Assembly: GCA_003009755.1 (NCBI GenBank)
Contig: PXUB01000022.1
Coordinates: 1 to 64,000, forward strand
DNA length: 64,000 nucleotides
Source of the DNA: Thermoplasmatales archaeon SW_10_69_26
GTDB taxonomy: Archaea; Thermoplasmatota; SW-10-69-26
Reading direction: 5' to 3'
The notes under the pieces were generated by a model. The model had not been told where the DNA came from. It made no database searches and saw only the letters and a program-made list of their open reading frames with translations. A program made the translations under genes and the position numbers. Positions 6,050-57,724 of the stretch are shown piece by piece; position 1 is the stretch's first letter, and every line of letters begins with the position of its first letter.

Positions 6050-6190
6050 CGATGACCATCAGGGACCTAAACCCCTCGGCTGGCCGGATCCCGAGACGAG
6101 AGAGCCTCAAGGCTGTCGGCGTACTAGCTGAGATCGGGCCAGATGGACCGAGGAAAAGACTGAAGCGACGGATTATCCATCGAACTGTTG

Positions 6191-7768
6191 ATGGCGCCGG
6201 CCTGGGAGGCGGGAGCCCTCGCCGCGATGGCTCTCATCCAGTTCGCCGTAGGCTACTGGTGGTGGAAGGGACCCCACCTGAAGGGAACCCGGTATTGGAT
6301 TGGCGGTCTGTTTGCCCTCAACGGGATTTCGAGCGCCCGCAAATCCCTCATGCTCCTGCCCGGGATCGAGTCCACCGTCCTAGACGTTATCGGAGCCCTT
6401 TCCGACAAGTGGACCAACTTCTTCCTGTTCGGCTTCGTCCTCCTCGTACTGGCACGAAAGCGGAATCTCCCCTCCCGTTTGTTGCTGTCTGCCGTCGGAG
6501 TCCTGATGGCCGTGGCAAGCCCGTTCTTCTTTTGGGACGGACTGAGTTCAGCAGCCTCGTTTCCTCAGGCCAGCAGTATGATGCACTTAGTGCTGAACCT
6601 GGCCATCATCGTGGGCGCAGTCGCGCTCGCCCAAGAGGCGCAAACGACCTCAGAAGGCCAGGATGCGATCTGGCTTTTCGCCCTGAGCGTGATCGGATTC
6701 CGATTCGCAGAGCTCAGCGCCTGGCTCGTTGGGGTCGATCTACTCGTGGATCTCCGTCAAGGCTTACCGGGCCTGGCCTCGAGCCTGCTTCAGACGGCTA
6801 CCCTTCCCGCCTTGCTCATCGGGTTCGCTATCGTCGTGCGGGAAAGGTTCCGGACCACCGCGAGTCGGGATCATACGCTATTCGATATCAGCCTCCTCCT
6901 TCTCCTTGCGGGGTTCCTGTTCGGGTTCGCGAGGGCGATCTCGACCGGGAGGAGCTTTGCGGTCTTCTTCTCGATCGGGCTCGTCCGTCCTGCGGGCTTC
7001 CTGGTCACGCAGTGGAAGCTTGCTGATCGCCCGTTCCGCGACACGGCCCAGTGGCGCCAGCTCCGGCTCGGAGGCGCCGCTCTTTGCGGCGCTATCCTGG
7101 CTGTTCCCCTGGCCTCTCCCTTCGGCATGGGAACGGGTGGGACCGTGATCCTCGGCCTCACGCTGGCGGTCTTCGGTCTCGGCCTCGTCCGGTCTCTATG
7201 GTTTTCACGAGGGCCAGCGGCGGTTTCGGACTCCAACCCGACCCCGGAGGGCGACTGGCCTGTCGATCCCGAGAACGTCGCACTCCCGCAGGATTGGAAG
7301 GAGCAGTTCACGGAGAACCTGGCCGCTTTCGGGGACCTGCCGGAACCCGTCCAAGACGGTCTCGATCGGCTCTCACGATGGCAGCGCCTGGTCCTAGCCC
7401 TTTACGCGGCGCCCGAATCCGACCGCCTTCCCCCGTACGAACGGACTACACCGGGGCTGCACTTTCTGACCCACTGTCCGTACCCAAGCATCGGCGCGGA
7501 GATCGCGCGAACCAACGAGCGGTGGACAAAGATCCTCGAGGAGTTAGGGATCGACACCCCCTCCGCCCGCTCTCCCTCCGAAACCCCCCTCATCGAGTCC
7601 ACGACAGGGCGGGCGGAGGGGCTCGACAGTCCCAGGGCCAAAGCCTACCACCTGACCCCCTTGGGCAAGCGAGTCGCCAAGCGACTGGTCGAGGAGAACG
7701 GGTTCGGCACGTTGAACGTCGAGAGGCTCAGGCGCGTCATCGGCGAGGGGTACGCGGACAACACGTAG
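6191..7768 (+). CDS. Polytopic membrane protein with probable C-terminal winged-helix domain
   Basis: About 10 hydrophobic segments, then a soluble tail ending KAYHLTPLGKRVA (wHTH wing-like). Confidence 0.6.
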   Translation: MAPAWEAGALAAMALIQFAVGYWWWKGPHLKGTRYWIGGLFALNGISSARKSLMLLPGIESTVLDVIGALSDKWTNFFLFGFVLLVLARKRNLPSRLLLSAVGVLMAVASPFFFWDGLSSAASFPQASSMMHLVLNLAIIVGAVALAQEAQTTSEGQDAIWLFALSVIGFRFAELSAWLVGVDLLVDLRQGLPGLASSLLQTATLPALLIGFAIVVRERFRTTASRDHTLFDISLLLLLAGFLFGFARAISTGRSFAVFFSIGLVRPAGFLVTQWKLADRPFRDTAQWRQLRLGGAALCGAILAVPLASPFGMGTGGTVILGLTLAVFGLGLVRSLWFSRGPAAVSDSNPTPEGDWPVDPENVALPQDWKEQFTENLAAFGDLPEPVQDGLDRLSRWQRLVLALYAAPESDRLPPYERTTPGLHFLTHCPYPSIGAEIARTNERWTKILEELGIDTPSARSPSETPLIESTTGRAEGLDSPRAKAYHLTPLGKRVAKRLVEENGFGTLNVERLRRVIGEGYADNT

Positions 7769-7868
7769 TGACGCGGCCACTTCTGGCTTCTCAGGCCGTT
7801 CACCTTTCACTACCTTGCAATCCAACTTAGGCGAGTTTTGAAACCTCTAACCGCGGACTCTGGTCTCG

Positions 7869-10800
7869 ATGACAGTCAGCCGATTGAGCGATGGACTTCC
7901 GACAGCCCCGAACGTCATAGTTTGTTTCATGGCCATGGTCGGTCTATCATTGGTTCTGTGGGCTCCGGGAGCGGAAGCCTCGGCTCAATTTCAGATCCAC
8001 ACGATTGCAGACGGCCTGGACGCTGCTTTTTCCGTTGACACCGGAGATATGGATGGAGATGGCGCGACTGATGTAGTCGTCGCGGAACGAGACTCTGATG
8101 CCATCCGATGGTACGAGAATGACGGTGGAGGGTCATCTACCGAGCACACCGTCACTTCTGACCTGACGAAAGCCAGGTCGGTGTCAGTCGCCGAGATCAA
8201 TGGAGACACTCACCCTGACGTGGTGGGAGTCTCCCGGGAAGACAACCTGGTGAATTGGTACAGAAACGACGGTGGAGGGTCATTTACAGAGCATACAATT
8301 TCAACCGCTCCCGACGAGCCCAAGTCAGTGGCTACTGGCGATGTGGACGAAGATGGAGATATCGATGCCCTAAGTGCATCGCGAGATGACAGTCGAATCG
8401 CCTGGTATGAAAACGATGGCAGCGGCTCCTTTGAGGCTCATACCATCACCACGGACGCCGATGGAGGGACATCGGTGACGACGGCAGATGTCGATTCAGA
8501 CGGGGATACCGACATTCTTAGCTCTTCCAAATTAGATAACCGGATCGCTTGGTACGAGAACGACGGCTCCGAATCCTTCACAACTCACACCGTCACGTCC
8601 GAGGCGAGTCACGCCAAAGACGTCACTACAGCAGATGTCAATTCTGACGGTCACCTGGATATCCTCTCTGCCGCCTCCGATGACAACGAAGTTACATGGT
8701 ACGAAAATGATGGAACCGAGTCATTCTCCACTCAGATAATCACAACCGAAGCGGAGAATGCGAATACAGTTCGCGCCACTGATATGGACAGGGACGGGGA
8801 TGTCGATGTCCTGAGCGCGTCCAACCAGGACGATACGGTCGCACTCTATGAGAACGATGGTTCTGAGTCCTTTACCACGCACATCCTCGACTCTAACCAG
8901 GAGAGCGTCAACGACTTGGCTTTGGTCGATTTGGAGGAAGAGGGGGACGTGGATGTCTTCGCACCCCCCGACGGACAAGTGACCTGGTTCGAGAATACCG
9001 TTTCGGCAAAGTTGCCGGATACCCCGCGAAACTTCGCAGTCGAACCCGGCCCCGATCCCACGGACATCGCCACGACCTGGGACCCGCCGGAAGACACGGT
9101 GTCGGTCCCGCTTGACCACTACAACATCTACCGTGGCAAGTCCAGCGACGGGCTCTCCAAGGTTACCGAAACCACGGACTCATCCTACCCCGACACGGAT
9201 CTGGACTGCTCGACCACGTACTACTACGAGGTCACCGCGGTCAACGAGGACGGTTTAGAAAGCGAACCCACGGATACGAAAAGCATCACCATCGACTGCT
9301 CTCCCACACCGCCGCGAAACCTGGACCTGGAACCCGGGATGCGGATGAATGCAATGAAGCTCTGGTGGACGGAACCCCAAGATAGTGGCTCAGCCCCTAT
9401 TGACCAGTACCCTGTTTATCGGAAGATCGGGGACAACCCGTTCGCGAAAGTCGGGACCGCTGAGGAGACATCCTTCATGGACAAGGGGTTGGAGTGTGAC
9501 CAGACCTACCACTACCACGTCACAGCAGTGAATGAGGATGGGTTCGAGAGCGAGCCCTCTGCCTCGACAACCACCCAGGAGTCCACCGCGAGCCTGGACA
9601 TTCCATGGGCGCCTGAAAACCCGAACTACGCACCATCCGCTCCCGCAACGCCGACCCTGGGGTACGAGGATTCCGCCAGTGCGGCAGAATTGAGCGAGTG
9701 TCCGGGTGAGGACAAGATGGTGGAGTTTTCGATTGACTCGGGCGCGTTCGACCATTACGACGCGGTGGACGCGAACACCGTCCCGCTGAACTTGGACTTG
9801 AACGCGCATCTCCGCATTCCCAGCGGGAACGTGACCTGGAACGATACGCCCCGGGACGTGGCCACGGTCCAGATCAACGACTCGGAGGAATGGACCACGC
9901 TGGAGACGCTAGACGCGAGGCCCGAAGACCCGAATCAGTCCACCACTGCCTGGAACGTGACCCGGCAGGATGTTCGCGTGCCGACGGAGTTCTTGTCGGA
10001 CGGCGAGAACGAGTTCCGGGTCGTTTTCGAGGACTTCCCCGAGGAGAACAAGACTGGGTGGAATGGGACCGTGGATGCGGCCCGGTTGGACTTGGTTGCC
10101 CCACCGACGTTCATTCTGCATGGGTGGGATGCGAGCCCAAACGCGGCGTTGACATGGAACAATGAAGACCAGCAATCGGACTGCGCTCAACGCCTGGACC
10201 TCAATGGATTAGCCCAGTGGCAGTGTGATTTGCACAACAAGCTCCTCATCCGTAGTTTGGCCGCTTTCGGGCAAAACCCGTGGACGTGGGCTGCCGACGA
10301 GGACCAATCATCGAGAGCCGCGATGCCGTTGTTCGGATACAACCCCAAGCAGGGTATCAACCAGACGGTCGCCGACTTGCACGAGAATGTGACCCAGCGG
10401 CTGGATCGCTTGGACTGGAACGGTCAGGCCAGCTTCGTCGGCCACAGCATGGGCGGATTGGTATCGCGAACTTATAGCGTGTCTGATTGCCCATCAAGTC
10501 CCAGGCTCCCGACATGTCCGCTTGCGAGTGACGGGACGGACTTCCGTGCCAACCGCATCGTCACGCTTGGGACACCTCACTTGGGCTCGCAGCTTGCCGA
10601 TATTTATACCTGTCAGCCAGAGCAGCTACCTTTCGGGATAGCGAACCACGACTATAGCTGGGGCCCCGCTGACTCGGATGCCGCACTGTTAGACTACCAA
10701 GAGGACAACGTGCTCCCGACAAGCGACTGCGGATGGCACGACTACTATGCCAGTGGGTTTGCGTATGATTCCCATTGCAGTGTGTTCGGCTGCGATATTC

Positions 10801-11327
10801 ATTCCAGTGAGGATGCGGGCGCGTACAAACATACCACGCCAGGCGGGGATGGGTTGAGCTACCTGGCGGATTTCCAAATCCGCACCCAAGGCCCAGACCC
10901 GGCAACCACCAACACGTTCCTCCGCTGGCTAAACAAGGAGTACGCGACTCTCGCCGAGAATCAGCGAACCAGCTATTACGCGATTGCTGGGGATTGTGAT
11001 GCCAACTGGCTGCTCCGGCAGTGTGATGGCTGGAAAAACGCGGAGGAAGCGCTCGGAACCAATAACGACGGCATCGTGCCCCTGGAAAGCGCCCTTAAGA
11101 CCGTGAAAGGGCCCACTCTCGAAGAGGAACACCCGCACCTTGCTCGGAACGCGGATTCCTCCACGATGCTGTCAGCAGTGTGCACGGGCAGCCAATACGA
11201 GCATAACAATCTCCACTCGACGGGGCCAATCCAAGCGTTGTCCTTGGCGGGACTTGCGGAAACCGTGGGCGAGACCCGAGCGCTTGAGAATACTTACGAC
11301 GAGGATTGCGGTTACGCGAGCACGTAG
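7869..11327 (+). CDS. Large secreted protein: FG-GAP/VCBS repeats + 2 fibronectin type III domains + alpha/beta-hydrolase (lipase/PGAP1-like)
   Basis: About 7 49-aa repeats with DxDxDGDxD and WYENDG. FN3 motifs YYYEVTAVNEDGLESEP and YHYHVTAVNEDGFESEP. Hydrolase motifs ILHGW, GHSMGGL, VTLGTPHLGS, NDGIVP. Visibly lower GC. Confidence 0.85.
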   Translation: MTVSRLSDGLPTAPNVIVCFMAMVGLSLVLWAPGAEASAQFQIHTIADGLDAAFSVDTGDMDGDGATDVVVAERDSDAIRWYENDGGGSSTEHTVTSDLTKARSVSVAEINGDTHPDVVGVSREDNLVNWYRNDGGGSFTEHTISTAPDEPKSVATGDVDEDGDIDALSASRDDSRIAWYENDGSGSFEAHTITTDADGGTSVTTADVDSDGDTDILSSSKLDNRIAWYENDGSESFTTHTVTSEASHAKDVTTADVNSDGHLDILSAASDDNEVTWYENDGTESFSTQIITTEAENANTVRATDMDRDGDVDVLSASNQDDTVALYENDGSESFTTHILDSNQESVNDLALVDLEEEGDVDVFAPPDGQVTWFENTVSAKLPDTPRNFAVEPGPDPTDIATTWDPPEDTVSVPLDHYNIYRGKSSDGLSKVTETTDSSYPDTDLDCSTTYYYEVTAVNEDGLESEPTDTKSITIDCSPTPPRNLDLEPGMRMNAMKLWWTEPQDSGSAPIDQYPVYRKIGDNPFAKVGTAEETSFMDKGLECDQTYHYHVTAVNEDGFESEPSASTTTQESTASLDIPWAPENPNYAPSAPATPTLGYEDSASAAELSECPGEDKMVEFSIDSGAFDHYDAVDANTVPLNLDLNAHLRIPSGNVTWNDTPRDVATVQINDSEEWTTLETLDARPEDPNQSTTAWNVTRQDVRVPTEFLSDGENEFRVVFEDFPEENKTGWNGTVDAARLDLVAPPTFILHGWDASPNAALTWNNEDQQSDCAQRLDLNGLAQWQCDLHNKLLIRSLAAFGQNPWTWAADEDQSSRAAMPLFGYNPKQGINQTVADLHENVTQRLDRLDWNGQASFVGHSMGGLVSRTYSVSDCPSSPRLPTCPLASDGTDFRANRIVTLGTPHLGSQLADIYTCQPEQLPFGIANHDYSWGPADSDAALLDYQEDNVLPTSDCGWHDYYASGFAYDSHCSVFGCDIHSSEDAGAYKHTTPGGDGLSYLADFQIRTQGPDPATTNTFLRWLNKEYATLAENQRTSYYAIAGDCDANWLLRQCDGWKNAEEALGTNNDGIVPLESALKTVKGPTLEEEHPHLARNADSSTMLSAVCTGSQYEHNNLHSTGPIQALSLAGLAETVGETRALENTYDEDCGYAST

Positions 11328-11740
11328 GAGCCGATTCCCGGGGTCGAGGTGGAGATTCGTCGGCCCCGGGGAGCCCTTTCTCACCCACGATAGGTCTGTG
11401 TTGGGTGCTAACCGCTGGCTCTCAATAGACGTCACAGCATCCTCCGGTCGAACTCACACCACACGAAGACTGGCAATACTTGGGTTGGAGGCCTCGAAAC
11501 TCAGATGAGGAACTTCGAGAGCCCTCAGACCACGAGTTCAGCGGGAGGTGGCATCCGTGACCAGAGGACGACAACAGCTGCGATCGCCCTTGGCCGGATG
11601 ATTGGGGTGCCGATCGGCGGCACCGGCCGCCTGGCTGGTTCCCTGTCACGACCGCTTTCACGCCTGGCTTGATGGGGTAGATGGACTGGTTAGGGCTGGT
11701 TGGCCGCACGAAGCCCGAGTGAGACGCCGCGTTCAGGATC

Positions 11741-12104
11741 TGATGAAAATTCCCGCAGATGCCGCTCGTCATCGGCGTGCAGTAGCGGCGATCATGTGGG
11801 GGTATCGGGGATATCGCGACCCCCGTTTTGATGAAAGTTGCCGGCGATGCCGCGCGTTATCGGCTTGCGATAGCAGCGATCGTTCAGGGGCTACGACGGA
11901 GTTGAGGCCCCCCATTTTGACGAAAATTTCCTCGCCCACCGCGTGATGCGGCTACCGTGGAATCGGAAATTTTCTTCGCCATCGGCTCACGGTAGCGGCG
12001 TTCGTCCGGGGGGCTGCTGCGGATATCGAGGCCCCCCTTTTTAGTGAAAATTTCCTCGTCTACCGCGTGACGCAGACACCGTAGAACCGGAAATTTTCAA
12101 GGGG
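11741..12104. repeat. Degenerate intergenic tandem repeat (88/89/124-bp spacing) with hairpins and GAAAATTTCC inverted repeats
   Basis: GAAAATT-type motif at 11745, 11833, 11922 and 12046. GAAAATTTCC-N33-GGAAATTTTC occurs at 11922-11974 and 12046-12098. Confidence 0.85.
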
Positions 12105-18308: not shown

Positions 18309-19412
18309 GTGGGCCGGGGCGTGGTGGCCGCAGCGCGCCCGCTGGCGTTCGCCCTCCTCGTCGTCCTGACCCCCGTCGCCGGATGCATGGGGGACACCGG
18401 CGAGCCCGAGGGCGTCATCGTCACCAGCCAGCCCCTGGTCGACGCCTTCCACGAGCTCGATCGGGCCGACCAGCTCGCCGGCGTCCCCGATTGGGCGATC
18501 GTCGACGAGCCGCCCGCCGCCGACCGGGTCGGACGCCCGTTCGTGATCGAGGCCGAGGAGGTCGTCCGACGGGAACCGGCCCTCGTCCTCGACCAACCCC
18601 ATCCCCTCGTCACGGGGCCCTCGCGCGAGGCGATGGCGACCGGCGTCCAGCAGGCCGGCATCGGCTACGAGAAGCTTCCGAGCGAGCCCGCGCTGGGCAC
18701 CGTCGAGGCCACGCTGGCGGCCGCCGGCGAGGCTACCGGCACCGATCACACCGACGCCTGGCAGCAGATCCGATCGGACCTGGCTGACCTGAACGAGACG
18801 CTGGCCGACCAGCCGCGTCCCAGCGCGCTGTTCCTGTTCCCCGCCGGCCTCGTCGCGGGCACCGACACCGACGTCGACCTCATCCTCGAGCTGGCCGGCA
18901 TGGAGAACGCCGCCCGCGAGGCCGGGCTCACCGGCTACGCGCAGATCACCGACGAGGCCGTGCAACGCACCGACGTCGACCTCGTCATCGCGACGGCAAC
19001 GATGCACACCACGCCCGAGGAGATCGCCGGCCGCCCGATGTTCGCGGACACCGCGATCGAGGACAGCCCCGAGCGCGTGCTCGTCGTCGACCCCAGCCGA
19101 ACCACGCGCCTGGGCCCCCACGTGGCCGAGGCCGCCTCCCAGCTGGCCGCCTGGAGCCACGAGGAGATGCCCGGGCCGCGCGTGAGCCCGACGCTGGACC
19201 CCTACGAGGTCCACGCCTGCGAGCCGGTCGACGTCGACGTCGACGCACCGAACGCGACCGTCACCCTCCTGGGCGAGACCCACGACCCCGGCACGGTCAC
19301 CGTGCCCGACGTCGCGGAGGGCCACTACCGCCTGACGGTCGAAGCCCGCGACGACACGGGCACGGCCACCACGACGACGATGCTCACCGTGGAGGGATCG
19401 GATTGCGCCTGA
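18309..19412 (+). CDS. ABC transporter substrate-binding lipoprotein (BtuF/FecB-like)
   Basis: Lipobox VAGC, EEVVRREPALVL, ILELAGMENAA, RLGPHVAEA. First gene of an overlapping four-gene operon. Confidence 0.75.
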   Translation: MGRGVVAAARPLAFALLVVLTPVAGCMGDTGEPEGVIVTSQPLVDAFHELDRADQLAGVPDWAIVDEPPAADRVGRPFVIEAEEVVRREPALVLDQPHPLVTGPSREAMATGVQQAGIGYEKLPSEPALGTVEATLAAAGEATGTDHTDAWQQIRSDLADLNETLADQPRPSALFLFPAGLVAGTDTDVDLILELAGMENAAREAGLTGYAQITDEAVQRTDVDLVIATATMHTTPEEIAGRPMFADTAIEDSPERVLVVDPSRTTRLGPHVAEAASQLAAWSHEEMPGPRVSPTLDPYEVHACEPVDVDVDAPNATVTLLGETHDPGTVTVPDVAEGHYRLTVEARDDTGTATTTTMLTVEGSDCA

Positions 19413-21040
19413 CGCCGCTCGTGCTCGCCTGCCTGCTCGTCTCCCCGCCCGCCCTCGGCCAGGCCTGGTCGCAGGAGAACGCCGACCCGGCCAACACCGG
19501 CCGCCTGGACAGGGCCGGCCCCACGAGCCTGGAGGACGCCCAGTTCACGCCCGTCGACGACCAGGTGCTCACCCAGGTCACCGAGGGCCCGGCCGGGCTC
19601 GCCCTGGCCGGCTCGCTGGGTGGGACCGTCTACGCCGTCGACGCCAGCGGCGAGGTCGTCTGGCAGGCCGACGTCGCCGACGAGATCCGCACCGCGCCTC
19701 TCTGGACCGGCGAGGTCGTCGTCGTGGTCCCCCGCGGCGACCGGGTTCACGCCTTCACCCCCGAGGGCGAGGAGGCCTGGACGGTCCCGATCGCCAACGA
19801 CCGCGGCGCCACGCTCGTCCGCATGGCCAGCCCCGTCGAGCACCCCAGCGGCGACGTCATCGTGGGCACGATGGACGGGACCGTCTACCGCCTCACGCCG
19901 CAGGGCTCGACCGTCTGGACGACGACCATCGGCGAGGACGACGCCGTCGAGGCCACTCCCGCCATCACGCCCGACGGCGACGTGATCGCCGCCGCCTTCG
20001 AACCCGGGCGAGAGGGGCGAGGCTTCCTCGCTCGCCTCGACGCCGACACGGGCGAGCGCACCTGGCAGCTCGACATCGGGTCCCAGGTCGTCGGCGCCCC
20101 CGCCGTCGTGGCCGACACCGTGCTCGTGCCCCTGCGCGACGGCAACGCCGTGCAGGCTCGCAGCCTCTCCGACGGCTCGCTGATCTGGGAGACGGCCTTC
20201 GACTCCCGCGTCCCCGCCTCACCCTCACTGCACGAGGGGCTGGCGATCGTGGGCGACATCCGCGGCACGGTGCGCGCCCTGGAGGTCTCCGGCGGCAAGA
20301 TCGCCTGGGAGTTCAACCCCCTCAGCGACGATCCCGACGTCGAGCTGGGCGGCAGCGGCCGCTACACGATCGCCGACAGCCTCGCCGTCGACGACGAGGG
20401 CGTCGCCTGGGTTCCCTACTGGGTGTTCGAGGCCGGCTGTTGCCCCCCCTCCGACTCGGTGCGCAGCCCCATCTACCGCCTCGACGCCGACGACGGCGAG
20501 ATCCTCGACCGGCGCTCGGACGCCAAGGCCAACCACGGACCCGCCCTCCACGCCACCGGCGTCTGGACCGGCAGCGACGAGCAGGGCGTCCGCTCGTTCC
20601 CGCTGGATCCCAGCCTCCAGCTCGACGCCCGCACCGACGCGGGCCAAGCCCGGTTGATCGTCAACACCGACGCGACCGGCGACTGGCGGGTCGCGACCGG
20701 GGACCGCTCGCTGGACGAGGGCCAAGGCCGCCCGCCGACGGTCTCCGGCTACGATCTCGACCCCGGCCAACACAACCTGACCGTCACCGTCGACGACCTC
20801 GCCAGCCAGGCCACCGTCGAGATCGAGGCCGACGACGGCGACGACGATCCCGCCCGCCCCGAGGACCAAGACCCCTCGGCGCCCACGGACGATGCCGAGC
20901 CGGAGCCCGAGCCCTCAGGCGAGGACGAGGAGCCCAACACCTCCGAGGGCGGCGCCGAGGACCCCCAACCGGCCCCGCTGGCCGCCTGGGCCGCCTGGCT
21001 CGCCATCGGGCTCGCCGCCGGGGTGCGACAACGTGCGTAG
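19403..21040 (+). CDS. PQQ-like (BamB-type) beta-propeller surface protein with C-terminal anchor
   Basis: Repeats such as VYAVDASGEVVW, LDADTGERTW, ALEVSGGKIAW. Acidic linker and C-terminal TM with basic tail. Confidence 0.8.
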   Translation: MRLTPLVLACLLVSPPALGQAWSQENADPANTGRLDRAGPTSLEDAQFTPVDDQVLTQVTEGPAGLALAGSLGGTVYAVDASGEVVWQADVADEIRTAPLWTGEVVVVVPRGDRVHAFTPEGEEAWTVPIANDRGATLVRMASPVEHPSGDVIVGTMDGTVYRLTPQGSTVWTTTIGEDDAVEATPAITPDGDVIAAAFEPGREGRGFLARLDADTGERTWQLDIGSQVVGAPAVVADTVLVPLRDGNAVQARSLSDGSLIWETAFDSRVPASPSLHEGLAIVGDIRGTVRALEVSGGKIAWEFNPLSDDPDVELGGSGRYTIADSLAVDDEGVAWVPYWVFEAGCCPPSDSVRSPIYRLDADDGEILDRRSDAKANHGPALHATGVWTGSDEQGVRSFPLDPSLQLDARTDAGQARLIVNTDATGDWRVATGDRSLDEGQGRPPTVSGYDLDPGQHNLTVTVDDLASQATVEIEADDGDDDPARPEDQDPSAPTDDAEPEPEPSGEDEEPNTSEGGAEDPQPAPLAAWAAWLAIGLAAGVRQRA

Positions 21041-21929
21041 GCGCTGGCTGGCCGGCCTCGTCGGCCTCGCCATCGTGACCGTCGGCACGCTCGTCGCCCG
21101 CGTCGTCGTCTTCCCTCGGCCCCTCTCGATCGAGGTCGCGGGCACGATCGTGAACCTACGAGCCCGCATCGCCGTCGCCGGGCTCGTGATGGGTGCCGGG
21201 TTCGGGCTCGCCGCCGTCGGCGCCCAAGCCCGCGCCCGCGAGATCCGCATCGACGCGACCCTCGCCGGTCCCGCCTGGGGCGCCCTGCCCGGCCTGTTGC
21301 TCCCCGTGCCGGTCGCCGGGCAAGCGATCGCGTGCCTGGTCGGCGCCGGCCTCGTCGCCTGGCTGACGCGCCGCTCGGCGGGCCTGTCGGCCACGCTGAC
21401 CCGCGGCGTCGCCGTCGCGGGCGCCGTCGTCGGCCTCGCCGCGCTGGGCCTGTTCGTCGGGCCCGGGCTCACCCCGACGACCGCGACCGCGTTCCTGCAC
21501 GCCTCCCTGGGCGGCGCCCTCACCCAAGCGACCTGGCTCCGCACCGCGATCGGGGGAGCGCTCGTGCTCGGCGCGCTCGGCCTCGCCTGGGCGCGCTGGC
21601 GCCAACTGGCGCTGGCCCGCGCCGGCCTGGACGAGGAGGCCTCCGCGGCCGCACTCGTCACCGTGCTGGCCTCCGCCGGCGCCGTGCTCGTCGCCGGCGT
21701 CGTGGCCGGGCTGGGCCTCATCGCGACCGCGATCGCCCGCCCCATCGTCGGCGAGGATCCCCGCTTGGCGGCCCCAGGCGGCCTGGCCGCCGGCGCCGGC
21801 GTGGGGTTGGCCCTCGACGGGATCGGGCAAGCCCTCGCCTGGCCGGGCGAGCTGCCCGTCGGCGTGTTGACCTTGATCGTCGCGAGCCTGCTGCTGGCTC
21901 GGGAGGTGGTGCCCGCTGATCCGCGTTGA
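21033..21929 (+). CDS. FecCD/BtuC-family ABC permease
   Basis: Highly hydrophobic. NLRARIAVAGLVMGAGFGLA and PGELPVGVLT motifs. GTG at 21033 overlaps the upstream stop. Confidence 0.75.
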   Translation: MRRRWLAGLVGLAIVTVGTLVARVVVFPRPLSIEVAGTIVNLRARIAVAGLVMGAGFGLAAVGAQARAREIRIDATLAGPAWGALPGLLLPVPVAGQAIACLVGAGLVAWLTRRSAGLSATLTRGVAVAGAVVGLAALGLFVGPGLTPTTATAFLHASLGGALTQATWLRTAIGGALVLGALGLAWARWRQLALARAGLDEEASAAALVTVLASAGAVLVAGVVAGLGLIATAIARPIVGEDPRLAAPGGLAAGAGVGLALDGIGQALAWPGELPVGVLTLIVASLLLAREVVPADPR

Positions 21930-22578
21930 GGAGCTGGGCGTCCGCCGCGGCCACGAACCCGTCCTGTTCGCCAGCGAGCTGACCGTCGGCGACGAGGTCG
22001 TGGCCCTCATGGGCCCCAACGGCGCCGGCAAGACCACGCTTTTGCAGACGCTGGCCGGTCAACTGAACCACAGCGGCACCCTCGAGCAGGGTCCGACGGC
22101 GTTCCTGGGAGCTCGCCCGCCCGAGCCCGTCGACATGCAGGCCGTCGAGCTCGTGCGCGCCCACGGCGCCGAGGACCCGCAGGCGTGGCTGGATCGCGTC
22201 GGGTACGAGGGCCCCGAGCTCGTCTCCCGCGGCAGCGCCGGCGAGCGCGCGCTCGTGGGTCTGGCCGGCGCCCTCAGCCGCGCGCGCGACCTGCTCCTCG
22301 ACGAACCCTTCGGCCCGCTGGACCCACCCCACACCGCCCGCGTGTGGCCAAGGCTGGCCGACCACGCCGAGGACCACGCCGTCCTGCTGGCGACCCACGA
22401 CCCGACCGTCGCCGCCCGCGCCGACCGCGTCGTGCTCCTCGCCGGCACGATCGTGGCCCAAGGCCCGCCCCGCGAGGTGCTGGCCGAGGAGCCCTTGTCC
22501 GACTGCTATGGCGCCCCGGTCGACGTCGCCTGGACCGATCTGGGGCCCGTCGTGCGGGGCCGAGAGCGCTCCCATTGA
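21916..22578 (+). CDS. ABC transporter ATP-binding protein (FecE/BtuD-like)
   Basis: GPNGAGKTT, degenerate signature GSAGER, LLLDEP, ATHD. The frame is open from about 21916 (CTG) and the start is uncertain. Confidence 0.85.
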   Translation: MIRVEELGVRRGHEPVLFASELTVGDEVVALMGPNGAGKTTLLQTLAGQLNHSGTLEQGPTAFLGARPPEPVDMQAVELVRAHGAEDPQAWLDRVGYEGPELVSRGSAGERALVGLAGALSRARDLLLDEPFGPLDPPHTARVWPRLADHAEDHAVLLATHDPTVAARADRVVLLAGTIVAQGPPREVLAEEPLSDCYGAPVDVAWTDLGPVVRGRERSH

Positions 22579-22917: not shown

Positions 22918-24945
22918 TCAGTCGAGGCGGGGCTCGAAGGGATCCACGTCCCACCAGACGTGCGTGGCGTGCGTGGCCGACCCCAGCGGGACCGGGCTGG
23001 CGGGCACGGCGGCGTCCCCGCCGCCGAGCTGGTCGTCCGCGACCGTGACGATCGCGGCCGCCGCCAGGCCGTCGCCCTCCAGCGGCTCGCCGGCGATCTG
23101 CCAGCTGCTCGTGAAGCCGCCCGTCGGCTCCCCGCACTGCGGCTGGAAGGCGTCCTCGATCGCGACGACGGGTCGGTCACCGGCGGCTCGGTCGATCGCA
23201 TCCTGGACCACCGGGTCGGCCTGGTCGAGACCCTCGGAGAGCATCACGACGGCCGTCGGCTCGGCCACGACCCGCGTCTCGCCGGTCTGCGGGTTGGACA
23301 GCACACCGTCGGTGAGGCGCAGCGTGATGGCCAACCCGGTCGGGTCGGCGTAGCCGGCCCCGGTCGCGAGGTCGCCGATCGTGGTCCCCGACCGGAACGA
23401 GCAGCCCTCGCCCGCGGCGTGGTGGTCCCACAGGATCGGGTAGGCGCCGTGGTCCTCGATCGAGAAGACCTCCGAGCCGGGCGCCTGCTCGTAGTCGCCG
23501 TCGTCCTCGACGTCGGTGAACAGGCCCACGTGCCCGGTGACGCGCATGCTGGGGCGCGGCTGGTGGTCGGGCTCGGGCTCGGCGCCGGCAGGCGTGCCGA
23601 ACCCGGCCGCGGTCCGGGTGACGTGCGCGTCGATCACGTTCACCCACGGGTCGGCCTCCTCCTCCCCGGTGGCCAGCGTCTGGCAGTCGGTCAGCGTGCG
23701 GTTCTCGGAGACCTCGTGGCTGGATTCGAGGATGCCCATCCACTCGTCGGCGTTGGGCTCGGGCTCGTGCGAGGTGACGGCGGGGCTGGCGGTCACGTTC
23801 TCGCCGGCCGGCGTGTCGGCCACGTCCGGCGCGCGTCCATCGCGCAGCGGACCCAGGCCGGGCACGTTCTCGGAGGCCTCGTCCCAGACGAAGGGCACGC
23901 CTTGGGCCGGCGTGTCGTCGCTGGGCGGCTCGTAGATGTCGAGATCGTGGGCGAGGAACGCAGTGGAGCTCGTATCGAAGCCCGGTTCGGCGGCGCCGCA
24001 CTTGTCCGGCGGGCTCGGCGCGACGACGCCGTGCCAGACGGCGAAGTGGTGGGCGCTGTTCCAGGCGTCGGACAGATAGCAGGCGGCGTGCCACATCGGG
24101 CACATCGTCGTGCCGCGCCAGGCCGGCTGCGCCTGACCGCAGACGTAGGTCTCGGCCTCGCAGGGCTCGTTCTCGTCCTCGCCGGTGCCCATCCAGTCCA
24201 GCTCGACCTCGCAGCGGCCGGCGTCGGGCGCGTGCGTGCCGAGGTGGGCCTCGGGCGTGAACGCGCACACCTTGGCGGTAGCCGTCGGGTCGAGGCCGCC
24301 GCCGTTCTTCTCGTCGGTGACGATCGTCGACAGGCGGTCCTCGTCGACCGGGTCGCCCTCGTCATTGGTGACGAAGGCGACGAAGCTCGTGTCGGTGACC
24401 GGCAGCAGCCAGCCTTGGCCGGCCGCGTCGTAGGCCTGCATCGGCGAGACCGCGTACAGGTTGCCGCCGTAGGCCTGCGTGCCGCCGTCGTCGACCTCCC
24501 CGGGAGTTGGCGTCAGGCCGACGCTGGCGCCGGCCTCGTGCACGGCGTCGTAGGTGCCCGGGCTGTTGCACCAGGGCTCGCACGCCGTCGTCCCGTACAG
24601 GCCGACGTAGGTGGCGAACTGCAGGTCGACGGTGATGGCCTCGTCGGCGCCCGCCGCCTGGTCGGGCGGACTCGTCGTATTCATCTCGGTGCCCTGGTTG
24701 TACACGAGCTCGCCGCAGAACCCGTCGGCGGTGAGCGTTCGGGCGCCCTCGGGCTCGGCGCAGCCGGTGTCCGTCCCGCGGTCCCAAAGCTCCTCGTCGG
24801 TGTCGGCCGGCGGCTCGGCCTTCGAGAGACCGGCGGTGTCCTCGGCGCCGGCGCTGAGGTGGAAGGCCACGCCGGTGGGGGCGAGCAGCGCAGCGACGAT
24901 CGCAGCCAGCAGCGCGAACCGGATCGGGGATCGGTCTCGGGGCAT
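22918..24945 (-). CDS. Secreted Cys-containing acidic protein of unknown function
   Basis: Signal peptide and about 14 Cys. Its ATG overlaps the stop of the FTR1 fusion gene (TGATG). Confidence 0.75.
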   Translation of the reverse strand: MPRDRSPIRFALLAAIVAALLAPTGVAFHLSAGAEDTAGLSKAEPPADTDEELWDRGTDTGCAEPEGARTLTADGFCGELVYNQGTEMNTTSPPDQAAGADEAITVDLQFATYVGLYGTTACEPWCNSPGTYDAVHEAGASVGLTPTPGEVDDGGTQAYGGNLYAVSPMQAYDAAGQGWLLPVTDTSFVAFVTNDEGDPVDEDRLSTIVTDEKNGGGLDPTATAKVCAFTPEAHLGTHAPDAGRCEVELDWMGTGEDENEPCEAETYVCGQAQPAWRGTTMCPMWHAACYLSDAWNSAHHFAVWHGVVAPSPPDKCGAAEPGFDTSSTAFLAHDLDIYEPPSDDTPAQGVPFVWDEASENVPGLGPLRDGRAPDVADTPAGENVTASPAVTSHEPEPNADEWMGILESSHEVSENRTLTDCQTLATGEEEADPWVNVIDAHVTRTAAGFGTPAGAEPEPDHQPRPSMRVTGHVGLFTDVEDDGDYEQAPGSEVFSIEDHGAYPILWDHHAAGEGCSFRSGTTIGDLATGAGYADPTGLAITLRLTDGVLSNPQTGETRVVAEPTAVVMLSEGLDQADPVVQDAIDRAAGDRPVVAIEDAFQPQCGEPTGGFTSSWQIAGEPLEGDGLAAAAIVTVADDQLGGGDAAVPASPVPLGSATHATHVWWDVDPFEPRLD

Positions 24946-27224
24946 CAGGTGTCAGTCTCCGTCTCGAAGAGGGGGTCCATGGCGTCGACGATCGTGTCGA
25001 CTTGGGCCTGAGCGCGCGTCTCGTGACCGAACGCGCTCGAGGTGATCGTGATCTCCACGTTCTGCCGGGTGAGGTGGGTCTGGTAGTCGGCGTCGTAGTG
25101 GGGGGCCTGGCGGGGATCGAGGTCGTAGCTGAGCCGGTGGTTGACCAGGTTGTCGAACCCGTCGCCGGGCAGCTCGTAAGGCACGTCGAGCAACAGCTCG
25201 TGGCCCTGCTTGCTGGCGTTCTCGACCGCCTCGGTCGGCGAGTAGATGCCGTCGTCGGGGTCGTCGGCGCCGGCACCGTACACCTGGTGGATCGAGGTGT
25301 TCGGCGCCAGCGAGCGGTTGTCGAGCGCGGCCTCGACGTTGGCGAACATCGCCATCGTCTGGTTCACGTAGGGATCCTTGCGGTCCCGGCACTGGCTGTC
25401 CAGATCGGGGTCGGCACCGTGATGGGTGAGGGACAGCCAGACGTCCTCGCTCTGCGGGTAGGCGGTCAGCTTGTCGGCGATCGCGTCGGCCATGCCCTGG
25501 GCGAAGGTGTCCGTCAGGCCGCTGGGGCCGGCCTCGAGCACGCGGCCCTCGTAGCCGTGCTCGTCGAGGGCCTCGTGGAAGGCCTTCTCCTTCATGCACT
25601 CGTTCATGATGTCGCTGTGCAGGTGGCTGGTGTAGGCGTCGACGATCACGTCGACGTCGGCCTCGACCAGCTGCTCGGCGCTGGCGGAGACGCTCTCGTC
25701 CCTCGGATCGACCATCGGGCGGATGTGGTGGGCGCGCTCGACGACGAGCTCGCCGTCGAAGCGCTCGTCCAGCGTCTGCTCGATGCGGTCGAGCACCTCG
25801 GTCTTGGCCTCGTGCATCTGGCTGGCGTTCTCCATCTGCCGGTAGTCCTTCCACGCGCCCAGACCGGCCGCCTCGAGGATGTCGGGCTCGCCCAGCCCGG
25901 GGCCGCCGGGCATCACGTACATGCCGTCCACGGCGGGCACCTGCTGACGGTCGGGGACCGGGCTGCCGACGTAGGTGGCCGGCCCGGCGTGGTGCTCGAG
26001 CCAGGCGTCCATGTAGTCCGGCATCGGGCGCGGCTCGTTCGCGTGGGGACGGTCCTCGTCGACGAGCACCGTGCCCTGGTCGATCGCGAGCAGCTCTTCG
26101 AACCCGAGCTGGATCAGCAGGTTGCGGGTGAACTCGGCGAACTCCACGTACGTCGTCGCGTTGTACTCGAGGGGCTCGCCGTGGGAGCGAAGCATGACGC
26201 CCACGGTCGCGTCGTCGGGCAGCTCCTCGCCGGTCGGCGCCTCGTCGCCGTGGGCGGAGGGACCGTGGTCGTGGCCGGTCGCCGCCGTGCCCAGGCCCTC
26301 GACGGGGTCCTGGGCGGCCATGCCGACCGTCGAGAAGGCGAGCACGAGCGCGAGCGCGACGGCGCCGACGCGGCCGGGCCGCAGCTGGCGGCCCTGCGTC
26401 GTCGCCGTGGTGAAGAAGCCCTGCTGGTAGAGGAAGGCGCCGCCGGCGATCGCGAGGTACCCAAGGTAGGCCAGCGCCTGGTACAGGGTGGGCGCGGCCG
26501 TGTAGCCGACGGCGGCGTGAAGGATGCGGCCGAGGACGGAGTCGGGCGCCAACAGCCACGAGGTGTCCCACAGGGCCGCCTGCGGGGCCAAGAAGCCGAG
26601 CTCGGTGAGCGCTTCGACGGCGTGCGTGAGCAGCATCGCCGCGACGACGAGCAGGAAGGCGCCCGTGACCTGGAAGAACCGCTGCAGGTTCACGTGCCGG
26701 CTGGCGCGCAGCACGAGGTACACGAGGCCGGCGCTGACGGCGAAGCCGACCGCGCCGCTCCACAGGAGGTCGAGCATGGCGTGCTCGGTCGCCAGCGTCG
26801 CGTAGAACAGCACGGTCTCGAGGCCCTCGCGGACGACGCTCAGGAACGTGATGGCCACGATCGTGGCGACCGATCCCGCCGTCAAGGCCTCGCGGACCTG
26901 CTCTTTGGCCTCCGAGAGGACCTGGGTGGTGTGGCTCCACATCCAGAAGACCATGTAGGTCAGCGTGCCGACAGCCAACAGGATGGCCACCAGCTCGAAC
27001 CAGGCGCCGTAGCCGCCCTCCTCGAAGGCCGTGAACAGGTGCTCGTAGATCAGCCAGCCCGCGCCCACGCTGGCGATCACGGCCGCGCCGAACCCGGCCC
27101 AGACGTGCTTGCGGACGTCGGGCCGACCCAGCCGTGACACCAGGCCGAGCAGGATGCCGGTGATCAACAGCGCCTCGAGTCCCTCGCGGAGCGCGATGAG
27201 CGCGGCCTCGGTGACGAACGCCAT
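24945..27224 (-). CDS. FTR1/EfeU iron permease fused to a ferrochelatase (HemH)-like domain
   Basis: Two REGLE motifs in a 7-TM FTR1 domain, an extra TM and a His-rich linker. Then GVMLRSHGEP, LSLTHHG, DPYVNQ and DVPYELPGDGFDNL in HemH order. Confidence 0.8.
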   Translation of the reverse strand: MAFVTEAALIALREGLEALLITGILLGLVSRLGRPDVRKHVWAGFGAAVIASVGAGWLIYEHLFTAFEEGGYGAWFELVAILLAVGTLTYMVFWMWSHTTQVLSEAKEQVREALTAGSVATIVAITFLSVVREGLETVLFYATLATEHAMLDLLWSGAVGFAVSAGLVYLVLRASRHVNLQRFFQVTGAFLLVVAAMLLTHAVEALTELGFLAPQAALWDTSWLLAPDSVLGRILHAAVGYTAAPTLYQALAYLGYLAIAGGAFLYQQGFFTTATTQGRQLRPGRVGAVALALVLAFSTVGMAAQDPVEGLGTAATGHDHGPSAHGDEAPTGEELPDDATVGVMLRSHGEPLEYNATTYVEFAEFTRNLLIQLGFEELLAIDQGTVLVDEDRPHANEPRPMPDYMDAWLEHHAGPATYVGSPVPDRQQVPAVDGMYVMPGGPGLGEPDILEAAGLGAWKDYRQMENASQMHEAKTEVLDRIEQTLDERFDGELVVERAHHIRPMVDPRDESVSASAEQLVEADVDVIVDAYTSHLHSDIMNECMKEKAFHEALDEHGYEGRVLEAGPSGLTDTFAQGMADAIADKLTAYPQSEDVWLSLTHHGADPDLDSQCRDRKDPYVNQTMAMFANVEAALDNRSLAPNTSIHQVYGAGADDPDDGIYSPTEAVENASKQGHELLLDVPYELPGDGFDNLVNHRLSYDLDPRQAPHYDADYQTHLTRQNVEITITSSAFGHETRAQAQVDTIVDAMDPLFETETDT

Positions 27225-27256
27225 GTGGGGGTCCTCCCGGGATCCATGCTCCCGGC

Positions 27257-27270
27257 TTAGGCTGACCTAA
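27257..27270. promoter_or_regulatory. DtxR/IdeR/SirR-type metal-responsive operator
   Basis: Palindrome TTAGG-CTGA-CCTAA about 30 bp upstream of the FTR1 start, just downstream of a minus-strand TATA-like CAAAGACTATAT. Confidence 0.7.
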
Positions 27271-27470
27271 ACCACGGGCCGATATAGTCTTTGTGGACGA
27301 ACGCGGTCCTATTTGGGTCGCCCTCGCTAGGGTGACCCTCACGCCCGTCGATCGCCGCCAGTGCCTCATCGCACTGCCGACGCATCCCCCCGCCTCGGCA
27401 AATATGTAACCTCTTAGCGTCGACATGTGTATCCCAGGGGTCTTGGTCGAGTGGCTCCCTGGGCATAGCG

Positions 27471-43748: not shown

Positions 43749-44012
43749 ATGTCCACACACACCACCCGTGACCTGCCCCCTGTCGGCACCGTGCTACGCC
43801 CTGCCCCCGACGGCGACCTGCTCGTCGAATCCGACGGCGAGCCGGTCGAACCGGGCACGCGGTGCGAGACCGACAGCGGCCGGATCGCAGGAACCGTGGA
43901 GGACGTGATCGGGCCCGTCGACCAACCCTTCCTCGTGGTCTCCCTCCCGGGAGATGCCGAGGGAGCCTCTGATCTCGAAGAGCTCGCCGGTACGCGGCTC
44001 TACCCAAGGTGA
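43749..44012 (+). CDS. gar1: Gar1/Naf1-family H/ACA RNP protein
   Basis: [17 protein letters not shown] motif. Archaeal gar1-tfb synteny. Confidence 0.8.
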
Positions 44013-44016
44013 TACC

Positions 44017-44964
44017 ATGAGCCAAGAAGAGCAACCCGCTGACATGGACGACGTCGAGGAGATCAACGAGTGCCCGGAATGCGGATCCGAGCACCTCACC
44101 CAGGACTACGAGCGAGGTGAGCTGATCTGCGAGACGTGTGGCCTCGTCCTCGACGAGACGTACATCGACCAAGGGCCCGAGTGGCGGGCCTTCGACGCCG
44201 AGCAGCGGGAGAAACGCGCACGCGTCGGTGCGCCGATGACGTACACGATCCACGACAAGGGCCTGTCGACCGAGATCGGCTGGCGTAACAAGGACTCCTA
44301 CGGGAAGAACATCCCCACGAAGTCCCGCGCCCAGCTGTACCGGCTGCGTAAGTGGCAACGCCGCATCCGCGTCTCCAACGCCACCGAGCGCAACCTCGCC
44401 TTCGCTCTGTCCGAGCTGGACCGCATGGCCTCGCGGATGGGGCTCCCGCGCAACGTGCGCGAGACCGCCGCGATGATCTACCGCCGCGCCGTCCAGAAGA
44501 ACCTGATCCGCGGCCGCTCGATCGAGGGCGTCGCCGCCGCGAGCCTGTACGCTGCCTGCCGGCAGTGCAACGTGCCGCGCACCCTCGACGAGATCGCCGA
44601 GGCCTCGCGCGTCTCGCGCAAGGAGATCGGCCGCACCTACCGGTTCATCGCCCGCGAGCTCAAGCTCAAGCTGTTGCCCACGAGCCCGACGGACTACATC
44701 CCGCGGTTCTGCAGCGAGCTCAAGCTCTCTGGCGAGATCCAGGCCAAGGCGGTCGAGATCCTCAAGCAGGCGGCCGACAAGGAGCTCACCAGCGGCCGAG
44801 GCCCCACCGGCGTCGCCGCCGCGGCCCTCTACATCGCCTCGATCCTGTGCGGTGAGCGCCGCACGCAGCGCGAGGTCGCCGACGTCGCCGGCGTGACCGA
44901 AGTGACGATTCGGAACCGCTACAAGGAATTGGCTGAGAAGCTGGACATTGACATCATCCTGTAG
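44017..44964 (+). CDS. tfb: Transcription initiation factor IIB
   Basis: [17 protein letters not shown] Zn ribbon, GPEWRAF, HDKGLST, RLRKWQ, two cyclin repeats, [12 protein letters not shown]. Confidence 0.99.
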
Positions 44965-53322: not shown

Positions 53323-53591
53323 GCCTGGTTCCGCCGCAGGATCAGCGCTCGCTCGCCGAGCTCCGGGAGACCTGCGGGAATAGGCTGGACAAGCAGAAGA
53401 TCGCCGTGCTCGTCCTCGACGAGCATGACGATCCCGTGCCGGCCCGCGTCATCGCCGACCAGGTCCACAGGTACGGTGGCATCAGCTCCTGCGAGGCCGC
53501 GACCGCGCTCCGCACGCACCCCAGCGTCGAGCACGAGACCTGCCCAGACCGGGGCGTCCACGTCTACTGGACCACGGAGGGGGAGACGTGA
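53319..53591 (+). CDS. Viral hypothetical protein, possible wHTH
   Basis: GTGA overlaps at both ends. Confidence 0.55.
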   Translation: MSLVPPQDQRSLAELRETCGNRLDKQKIAVLVLDEHDDPVPARVIADQVHRYGGISSCEAATALRTHPSVEHETCPDRGVHVYWTTEGET

Positions 53592-56833: not shown

Positions 56834-56879
56834 CCATGTCGGACGTCACCGACGAGGACGAGGACGGGGGTGAGGCGTG

Positions 56880-57368: not shown

Positions 57369-57724
57369 TGGCCAGCCGACCGAAGACACTTGAGGAACTC
57401 CTCGACCTCCTCCACGAGAGGGCCGGCGCGGACGGGCTCGACGTCCGCATCGAAGCATCAACGGAACACGACGAGTTGAGCGAAGTCACGCCCGTCGAGG
57501 TCACCGTCTCCCTTCCCGCTGGTGGGAGGACTGTGGCTGAGGAGTCCAATCCCTGCCGGGAGATGGATCTCAGCACGGCGCTCTACCGCGTCGTCCGTCG
57601 CGTCCTCAGAGAGCGCGAGCGGGGACACTACGAGGACTGGCAGCCCGACGGAGACGACGTCCAATCCGTCGAGATGGGAGCCCTGCTTGAAGAGGACGAG
57701 GACGGAGGCGAGGCGGATGGGTAG
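57368..57724 (+). CDS. Viral hypothetical protein
   Basis: TGATG coupling, SD GGTGA. Confidence 0.6.
   Translation: MASRPKTLEELLDLLHERAGADGLDVRIEASTEHDELSEVTPVEVTVSLPAGGRTVAEESNPCREMDLSTALYRVVRRVLRERERGHYEDWQPDGDDVQSVEMGALLEEDEDGGEADG

Follow-up and report, generated by a model that had tools for sequence, protein, structure and literature searches.

The 64,000-nucleotide stretch of DNA examined here (the window), from contig PXUB01000022.1 of Thermoplasmatales archaeon SW_10_69_26 and about 70% GC, carries a gene for a protein of 759 amino acids (P0001) in which a permease of the FTR1 family is continued, through an additional predicted membrane helix and a histidine-rich tether, into a domain of predicted ferrochelatase fold. 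Very probably, the protein is an iron-regulated FTR1 permease that bears this domain on its outward side. The fuller mechanism set out next, in which the iron taken up is free or loosely bound, we regard as standing at about an even chance.

The locus would be a two-gene operon for iron acquisition in a high-GC archaeon related to Thermoplasmatota. When iron is abundant, transcription of both genes would be stopped by an iron-loaded repressor of the DtxR family, bound to a palindrome a short way past the TATA box. The first of the two genes would provide an FTR1-type permease with seven helices and two iron-binding REGLE motifs; an eighth helix would carry the chain back outside, where a flexible His-rich tether would hold a two-lobed domain of 430 amino acids with the ferrochelatase fold. 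This domain would take the place that in other FTR1 systems belongs to an oxidase, a cupredoxin, P19 or EfeO, capturing iron in a cleft of His, Glu and Asp residues (H348, E350, H602, E684, D691), aided by the tether, and passing it to the permease directly below. The second gene, for a secreted protein of 675 amino acids (P0002), would supply a lineage-specific accessory. We infer the DtxR type of the regulator, iron as the ligand, the hand-over to the permease, and a source in free or loosely bound iron rather than in a tetrapyrrole.

An earlier, sequence-only reading of this stretch had proposed an intact FTR1 permease with two REGLE motifs, an eighth membrane helix, an extracytoplasmic domain with the motif order of HemH, a DtxR-type box and the absence of the usual FTR1 partners. 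Every motif it quoted from P0001 was found in its place, and all of these claims are supported by the results below.

The permease and its ferrochelatase-like domain

The N-terminal part of P0001 (residues 7-265) matches Pfam PF03239 with an E value of 6.9e-33 (114.6 bits, against a cutoff of 25.3), and both REGLE (REXXE) motifs, at residues 13 and 132, fall inside predicted hydrophobic segments. The protein scores 178.4 bits with the NCBIfam equivalog for EfeU (NF041756), below the cutoff of 255. Since it passes PF03239 and misses the EfeU cutoff, it is a member of the FTR1 family rather than an EfeU orthologue. P0001 is a putative iron transporter. Further along the protein are found the motifs GHDHGPSAHG (residue 317), GVMLRSHGEP (342), LTHHG (599), DPY (617) and VPYELPGDGFDNL (681).

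For modelling and searches, the C-terminal domain was taken as a construct of residues 330-759 (430 amino acids), aligned in 63 rows (the window protein and 62 relatives). From this alignment, AlphaFold2 produced a model with a predicted local distance difference test score (pLDDT) of 92.8 and a predicted template modelling (TM) score of 0.92, and comparison of the model with the PDB by Foldseek gave 83 matches at E ≤ 0.001. Among the matches listed, ranks 1-44 are ferrochelatases only (best E 2.1e-10; TM score normalised to the target, 0.58-0.76), from human, yeast, Bacillus subtilis, B. anthracis and Listeria monocytogenes (CpfC), forms bound to coproheme and porphyrin included. The next matches are periplasmic CbiK of Desulfovibrio vulgaris (E 2e-6), FetB of Porphyromonas gingivalis (E 1.4e-5) and SirB. 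Profile comparison points the same way: hhalign aligned the family profile with E. coli HemH over 304 columns (probability 95.1-95.8, E 3e-8 to 8e-9), pairing GVMLRSHGEP with GILLANLGTP, LTHHG with LSYHG, and GDGFDNL with ADCLETL, exactly the pairing that the sequence-only reading had put forward. The nearest cluster in the ESM Atlas, with a TM score of 0.77, bears the automatic name 'Ferrochelatase domain-containing protein'. By model and profile, then, the C-terminal domain adopts the class II chelatase fold in its ferrochelatase-like version; the earlier reading had named lack of a class II chelatase fold as fatal to its proposal.

Searches by sequence gave a fainter signal. The Pfam ferrochelatase family (PF00762) is detected at E ≤ 0.01 in 27 of the 63 family members (strongest E, 6.4e-17), and its 27-bit cutoff is reached by three of the 11 relatives whose scores were seen: P0012 (28.8), P0042 (27.1) and a protein from the related locus L021 (50.8, the strongest individual score seen). 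The family profile run against PDB sequences found one weak match (CpfC, 9vi5, E 0.016), which agrees with the fold result and would be insufficient alone. A phmmer search of the PDB with the whole 759-residue protein found a sole match, to an aldolase (E 0.09), which is meaningless.

The positions that a ferrochelatase would need are largely conserved, in part with other residues. H602, in LTHHG, falls at the position of the catalytic His in E. coli HemH (SYHG, from the motif S-x-H-G/S) and is present in 63 of 63 rows. D691 aligns with the catalytic Glu of HemH (D-x-x-E-T-L) and is Asp in 61 of 63 rows, Glu in one and His in one. At the N-terminal loop, H348 aligns with the Leu of L-G-T-P in HemH (His in 59 of 63 rows, Tyr in two), and E350 with the Thr of the same motif (63 of 63). 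E684, present in 59 of 63 rows, has no catalytic counterpart in HemH. The hhalign comparison also reveals a family-specific insert of about 70 residues (domain residues ~60-130) for which HemH has no counterpart; it bears an invariant PGGPGLGEPD..E motif, with D448 and E451 each found in 63 of 63 rows. Overall, conservation across the family falls overwhelmingly on carboxylates, together with two His and one invariant Arg. The conserved H348, E350, H602, E684 and D691 would line a putative cleft.

On which side of the membrane does the domain lie? The seventh FTR1 helix ends in the cytoplasm. If residues 286-304 were not membrane-spanning, the domain, which has the fold and the catalytic His of a ferrochelatase, would lie inside the cell and might take imported iron for heme synthesis, since FTR1 proteins have seven membrane helices (PMC9174327). 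An internal position is, however, hardly credible. Residues 286-304 constitute the most hydrophobic segment of the protein (Kyte-Doolittle score over 19 residues, 2.18), and the charges that flank it fit a true crossing: the loop ahead of it (residues 266-285) has three Arg or Lys and no Asp or Glu, and the 455 residues past it contain 90 Asp or Glu as against 26 Lys or Arg. Over the eight helices, loop charges alternate as expected from the positive-inside rule, giving a prediction of both N-terminus and C-terminus outside.

Homologues that lack the permease bear on the same matter. Of 30 stand-alone or extended forms, 27 begin with a signal-like hydrophobic segment (the other three start right at the domain), and one has a lipoprotein-like Cys. 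The His-rich tether is conserved as well: at least two His occur in the 30 residues preceding the domain in 29 of the 32 other fused relatives, mostly as G-H-x-H, and 9 of the 30 stand-alone or extended rows have His-rich stretches after the signal segment. Finally, a box for an iron repressor (see below), with repression at iron sufficiency, would suit uptake better than biosynthesis. The charge pattern and the signal-bearing homologues thus predict that the chelatase-fold domain sits outside the cell.

The domain family is small: a word-indexed search found 50 clusters, and an exhaustive search of 1.84 billion clusters found 44 representatives at E ≤ 0.001. Pfam FTR1 is also present in 32 of the 62 other aligned relatives, the closest of which has 85% identity with P0001, equal length and identical architecture. 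The permease and the domain occur in one frame in six loci from Thermoplasmatota or Thermoplasmatales metagenome-assembled genomes. A maximum-likelihood tree built from the domain has a split, with 100/100 support, that puts all 33 fused rows (the window included) and two short rows on one side and 28 stand-alone or extended rows on the other. Judged from the sequences compared, the fusion is ancient and stable. An assembly artefact, which the earlier reading had named as a possible undoing, is rejected because the architecture recurs in 32 other proteins and in the six Thermoplasmatota loci.

Amongst the extended relatives are Actinomycetota proteins of 620-675 amino acids (P0051, P0052 and P0061; loci L012, 7830-9827; L017, 2735-4759; L020, 2095-3963). 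These consist of an exported chelatase-fold domain, a very His-rich linker of low complexity, and, at the C-terminus, a module with about three membrane helices, which contains a conserved WDVVxHA...VHLLENGGHW and has no Pfam match. Possibly, the module is a second kind of membrane acceptor for the chelatase-fold domain.

Candidate operator and gene neighbourhood

Upstream of the fusion gene lies a perfect palindrome of the form TTAGG-N4-CCTAA, preceded by a TATA-like element (Table 1). Within the window, this is one match against 0.13 expected, and at least one match was seen in 12 of 100 shuffles, so the palindrome is weak evidence alone. The picture changes with the related loci. Over 22 sources (the window plus 21 related loci, six of them fused Thermoplasmatota and 15 stand-alone; 288,447 bases in all), 27 matches were found with at most one mismatch, 16 of them exact, as against 0.87 and 0.02, respectively, expected from 100 Markov-1 simulations. 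Because it recurs in this way, the palindrome is highly non-random.

Twenty of the 27 matches lie 2-84 bp upstream of a chelatase-like gene, and these are spread over 15 of the 22 sources, from both Thermoplasmatota and Actinomycetota. Boxes also precede the leading gene of the L014 operon and the DtxR gene of L021, and L013 has one between its chelatase-like gene and ferritin. The archaeal loci L001-L003 share the layout of the window, with 9-10 nt separating a TATA-like element (TTATATC or TCATATAC) from the TTAGG-N4-CCTAA that follows. Archaeal DtxR homologues block initiation of transcription just downstream of the TATA box. Most likely, the palindrome is bound by an iron-loaded repressor of the DtxR family, which in the archaeal loci would act in this manner.

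The iron boxes of IdeR and DmdR1 are printed as TTAGGTTAGGCTAACCTAA (PMC4598388) and TTAGGTTAGGCTCACCTAA (PMC7174319, Table 1). As so printed, both end in exactly TTAGG-N4-CCTAA, and the window palindrome equals the last 14 nt of the 19-mer. The best 19-mer in the window agrees with the IdeR/DmdR1 consensus at 14 of 19 positions, with the 14-nt core exact. Most loci have a single palindrome of 14-16 bp rather than a 19-mer, and it is often duplicated (L010, L012, L017). Two exact 14-bp boxes abut in L010 (1143-1170), and in L012 (7755-7797) and L017 (2670-2715) their starts are 29 or 32 bp apart. Such duplication suggests several repressor dimers per promoter.

The genes nearby were surveyed by a Pfam scan of 69 open reading frames (ORFs) picked within about 4 kb of the gene and by tblastn over all 21 loci. 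Of the 15 stand-alone loci, five have ferritin beside the gene (L007, L011, L013, L014, L015), three have a DtxR-type repressor (L011, L014, L021), and two have FTR1 in the same gene string (L014 and, by tblastn, L013). FeoB and a Peripla_BP_2 protein were found once each, beside L021 and L015, respectively. Taken together, the genomic context points to iron in general, not to heme.

Some loci merit description for their own sake. In L014 (2989-10609) and L013 (79-5171), a bacterial operon under one exact box comprises, in order, a 366-amino acid protein with no family, FTR1 (423 amino acids), a Hydantoinase_A-like protein (700 amino acids), a protein of about 147 amino acids, the exported chelatase-fold protein and ferritin; in L014, a divergent DtxR-FeoA repressor lies alongside. 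L021 (3619-8605), from a low-GC (37%) member of Thermoplasmata, has a DtxR-type repressor, FeoB, a polytopic membrane protein of 176 amino acids with no family, and a chelatase-fold protein with an N-terminal signal-like segment and a C-terminal anchor. In the fused archaeal loci L001 (9288-10190), L002 (8721-9185) and L005 (9287-10222), the next gene encodes a lipoprotein-like protein of about 300 amino acids with a CarboxypepD_reg domain. These proteins are related to one another (43% identity between those of L001 and L005) and unrelated to P0002. The fused genes of L004 and L006 are preceded by genes for proteins of 649 and 619 amino acids, likewise unrelated to P0002 by BLASTP.

Might the domain handle another metal (Mn, Co, Ni or Zn), or serve as a sensor or gate of the permease instead of a donor? 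The class II structural matches include the cobalt chelatase CbiK and structures of SirB with Co2+ or Fe3+, some regulators of the DtxR family respond to manganese, and His-rich tails occur in zinc- and nickel-binding proteins. Nonetheless, either role is quite improbable, as the domain is fused to an FTR1 iron permease with both REGLE motifs intact, ferritin and FeoB are among its neighbours, and the box matches the iron-type operator of IdeR and DmdR1.

The heme alternative is more substantial. The domain might act as an extracytoplasmic dechelatase, binding heme or an iron tetrapyrrole and running chelation backwards, so that Fe(II) enters the fused permease and the porphyrin is left outside. 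The best structural matches are, after all, true porphyrin ferrochelatases, some with coproheme or porphyrin bound. The catalytic His is invariant, and the position above the porphyrin ring, equivalent to H348 and which we take to be Tyr13 in B. subtilis and Met76 in human ferrochelatase, is occupied in nearly all rows by His and in two by Tyr, either of which could be an axial ligand of heme. Also, an ABC importer of the Peripla_BP_2/FecCD type (18309-22578), a class that includes importers of heme, siderophores and cobalamin, adjoins the operon. Known extracytoplasmic relatives are themselves linked to heme: PMC12094164 describes IhtB/FetB of P. gingivalis as a lipoprotein that binds heme and as a putative reverse ferrochelatase, with the proposed task of removing iron from heme for a transporter next to it.

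Yet the reverse activity of IhtB is itself described there as putative. The scanned ORFs of the window and of the 21 loci include no heme-specific gene (heme oxygenase, hemophore or heme receptor); ferritin, DtxR, FTR1 and FeoB are what recurs. A scan of the window found no TTAGG-N4-CCTAA box upstream of the ABC importer cluster. Carboxylates and two His, with a single invariant Arg, look more like a cation site than a pocket for propionates, and the family insert could occupy the cleft. The dechelatase reading is possible, if rather doubtful. In its most developed form, the domain would be a working reverse ferrochelatase wired to a channel, stripping iron from environmental heme or tetrapyrroles at the cell surface with the ring neither imported nor destroyed, and the stand-alone cousins in Actinomycetota would do likewise for separate transporters; this we consider unlikely. 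Free or loosely bound iron is favoured over heme because of the context of ferritin, FeoB, FTR1 and DtxR, the lack of a recurring heme gene, and invariant residues that are mostly carboxylates.

Several observations nevertheless weigh against a mechanism in which the domain serves as an iron-binding partner of the permease under a DtxR-type switch. The window domain itself has no match to PF00762 even at E ≤ 1, and the catalytic Glu of ferrochelatase is replaced by Asp (D691). The porphyrin-type cleft, strictly conserved and with His on both faces, would also suit a tetrapyrrole ligand. As for regulation, no DtxR gene was found among the 54 window ORFs scanned with Pfam, and no box was found in four of the 22 sources (L004, L006, L007 and L019), two of which, L006 and L007, have upstream regions that are cut or short. 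The same 54 ORFs contain no multicopper oxidase, cupredoxin, P19, M75 or DyP peroxidase domain, in keeping with the claim that the usual FTR1 partners are missing here; the FTR1 systems studied so far use a redox partner (PMC9174327), and none was found here. Perhaps P0002 could be that partner, in which case the chelatase-fold domain would not be the primary donor of iron.

The partner gene and the remainder of the window

The gene for P0002 overlaps that of P0001 at the junction ...gac acc TGATG ccc..., where one base is common to stop and start, and both genes appear strongly coding from their third-position GC (0.96 for the fusion gene, 0.95 for its partner). The sequence-only reading had regarded a translationally coupled, secreted partner as completing the locus. 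Coupling is evident, and a single hydrophobic segment (residues 10-28) would act as N-terminal signal or anchor. Conservation, on the other hand, failed: the P0002 family is absent from all 21 related loci by tblastn and by family hidden Markov model, and BLASTP found no similarity between P0002 and the accessory proteins beside the fused genes of L001, L002, L005, L004 and L006. Since it is absent from every related locus, P0002 is not a core component; it would be a clade-specific accessory from an orphan family. Co-occurrence in close relatives (60-85% identity) is hinted at by one fact alone: for P0005 (fusion) as for P0100 (partner), the longest contig given has 11,563 bases.

About twelve Cys are conserved in P0002, which also has an FTDxDDDGxYEQAP stretch rich in Asp and matches nothing in Pfam or NCBIfam at E ≤ 1. 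Twenty-three relatives were found, and a scan of the 24 members gave no Pfam domain save one fn3 match in one member (E 0.004). The family profile had no match among PDB sequences at E ≤ 10. The AlphaFold2 model has a poor overall score (pLDDT 57.5), and confidence is mostly confined to residues ~470-670. With this model, Foldseek gave no PDB match at E ≤ 0.001 (weak rows for FetP at E 0.5-1 are noise), and the ESM Atlas yielded no usable feature match and structural TM scores of 0.31 or less. Prediction of a complex between domain residues 8-425 and P0002 residues 100-675 scored 0.00 against a mark of 0.32, with controls not run, and is evidence neither way.

Archaeal markers encoded by the window include a TFIIB/TFB homologue (43954-44964), an XPD-type helicase and helix-turn-helix domains of haloarchaeal type. 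A bacterial source for this DNA is rejected on the strength of the TFIIB gene. Rfam and tRNA scans of the window gave no matches. The fusion operon is flanked by a divergent gene for enoyl-CoA hydratase and by the convergent four-gene cluster for the ABC importer. The ORF for the ABC ATPase seems N-terminally short, because its ABC_tran match begins with residue 1 at profile position 14. The region 53400-64000 may be an integrated virus or mobile element: it encodes a ParB-like protein (54157-56067), a match to a terminase large subunit (59794-61248) and many ORFs without a family, AT skew is strongly positive (0.16-0.34) over 52-64 kb, and GC is slightly lower. An island of low GC (57-62%, vs about 70%) at 6000-12000 encodes an FG-GAP/fn3 repeat protein of 1152 amino acids (7869-11327).

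Table 1. Features of the fusion locus and the adjoining importer cluster (window coordinates)
Feature	Position	Strand	Basis
TATA-box-like element ACTATATC, 10 nt upstream of the palindrome	27281-27288	-	read in sequence; promoter role inferred
Perfect 14-bp palindrome TTAGGTCAGCCTAA, candidate core of a DtxR/IdeR-type operator, 32 bp upstream of the ATG	27257-27270	.	sequence
Fusion-protein gene (FTR1 permease, eighth helix, His-rich tether, chelatase-fold domain)	24945-27224	-	ORF, 759 amino acids (P0001)
FTR1/OFeT permease core, residues 7-265, seven hydrophobic helices, REGLE at residues 13-17 and 132-136	26430-27206	-	Pfam PF03239
Eighth transmembrane helix, residues 286-304, predicted to return the chain to the outside	26313-26369	-	hydropathy
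His-rich tether GHDHGPSAHG, residues 317-326	26247-26276	-	motif read in translation
Ferrochelatase-fold domain, residues 341-753, predicted extracytoplasmic	24966-26204	-	AlphaFold2 model, Foldseek, hhalign
Coupled partner gene	22918-24945	-	ORF, 675 amino acids (P0002)
Peripla_BP_2 protein	18309-19412	+	ABC importer cluster
PQQ_2 beta-propeller protein	19403-21040	+	ABC importer cluster
FecCD permease	20892-21929	+	ABC importer cluster
ABC ATPase	22000-22578	+	ABC importer cluster

Relation to known systems and significance

In organisms ranging from bacteria to yeast, FTR1 permeases serve as a principal means of taking up iron, and how iron reaches them is a standing question. To our knowledge, every FTR1 system studied uses a different outward partner: multicopper oxidase, cupredoxin, P19, EfeO/M or DyP peroxidase. 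P0001 resembles the known systems (yeast Ftr1p-Fet3p, EfeUOB/M, FtrABCD, P19-cFtr1 and FetMP) in its seven-helix permease core and two REXXE motifs. A further likeness would be an outward metal-binding component that hands iron to the permease, as described for those systems (PMC9174327) and as proposed for the window protein. Unlike the outward components of those systems, which are multicopper oxidases, cupredoxins, P19, M75 domains and DyP peroxidases, that of P0001 is joined covalently to the permease by an additional helix and adopts a class II chelatase fold.

With the ferrochelatases (HemH/PpfC, CpfC; PF00762), the window domain shares a two-lobed fold, the order of motifs and an invariant equivalent of the catalytic His. 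Identity is only about 10-15%, however, and the domain departs from them in having no Pfam match, Asp for the catalytic Glu, an insert of about 70 residues, and H-G-E-P where the N-terminal loop of E. coli HemH has L-G-T-P. Ferrochelatases are cytoplasmic (or on the matrix side) and belong to the heme pathway, whereas the window domain is predicted to lie outside, with regulation and neighbours of the iron-uptake type. Export of a class II chelatase fold is itself known from periplasmic CbiK of D. vulgaris (PDB 2xvz, 2xvx) and IhtB/FetB of P. gingivalis (PDB 9b86). These are of the CbiK type, about 260 amino acids long, bacterial and unfused; the window domain, in contrast, has 430 amino acids, is nearer to HemH and is archaeal. 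They also work with TonB-dependent receptors and ABC importers, not with FTR1 (PMC12094164). The window protein would thus work like FTR1 partner proteins and like exported class II chelatases, yet be a member of neither group.

The palindrome, for its part, shares with the iron box of IdeR, DmdR1 and DtxR the half-sites TTAGG and CCTAA, a 4-nt spacer and a place in the promoter of an iron-uptake gene. It differs in that the archaeal copies lie 9-10 nt downstream of a TATA-like element and not over a bacterial -10 region.

A full-text search of the literature, with subscription journals outside its coverage, found no description of an FTR1-chelatase fusion or of an exported HemH-like protein of iron uptake. 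What appears to be new here is a class of FTR1 partner, a branch of exported ferrochelatase-fold proteins, and an operator shared by archaea and bacteria. The locus would add a partner of a different fold to the FTR1 theme and extend that theme to archaea, and since domain and permease are fused, they are paired beyond doubt. With it comes the definition of a small family, not named before, of exported proteins with a predicted ferrochelatase fold, placed in what is probably a DtxR/IdeR iron regulon of Thermoplasmatota and Actinomycetota. The soluble stand-alone forms should express easily, making it directly testable whether, outside the cell, the chelatase fold can be a receptor for iron or a ferrochelatase working in reverse. 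Were the latter true, P0001 would be the first chelatase-permease machine, and archaea and bacteria would have in common, under one DtxR-type switch, a route from heme to iron that spares the ring. The operator common to two domains of life may also provide a handle for predicting the iron regulons of archaea.

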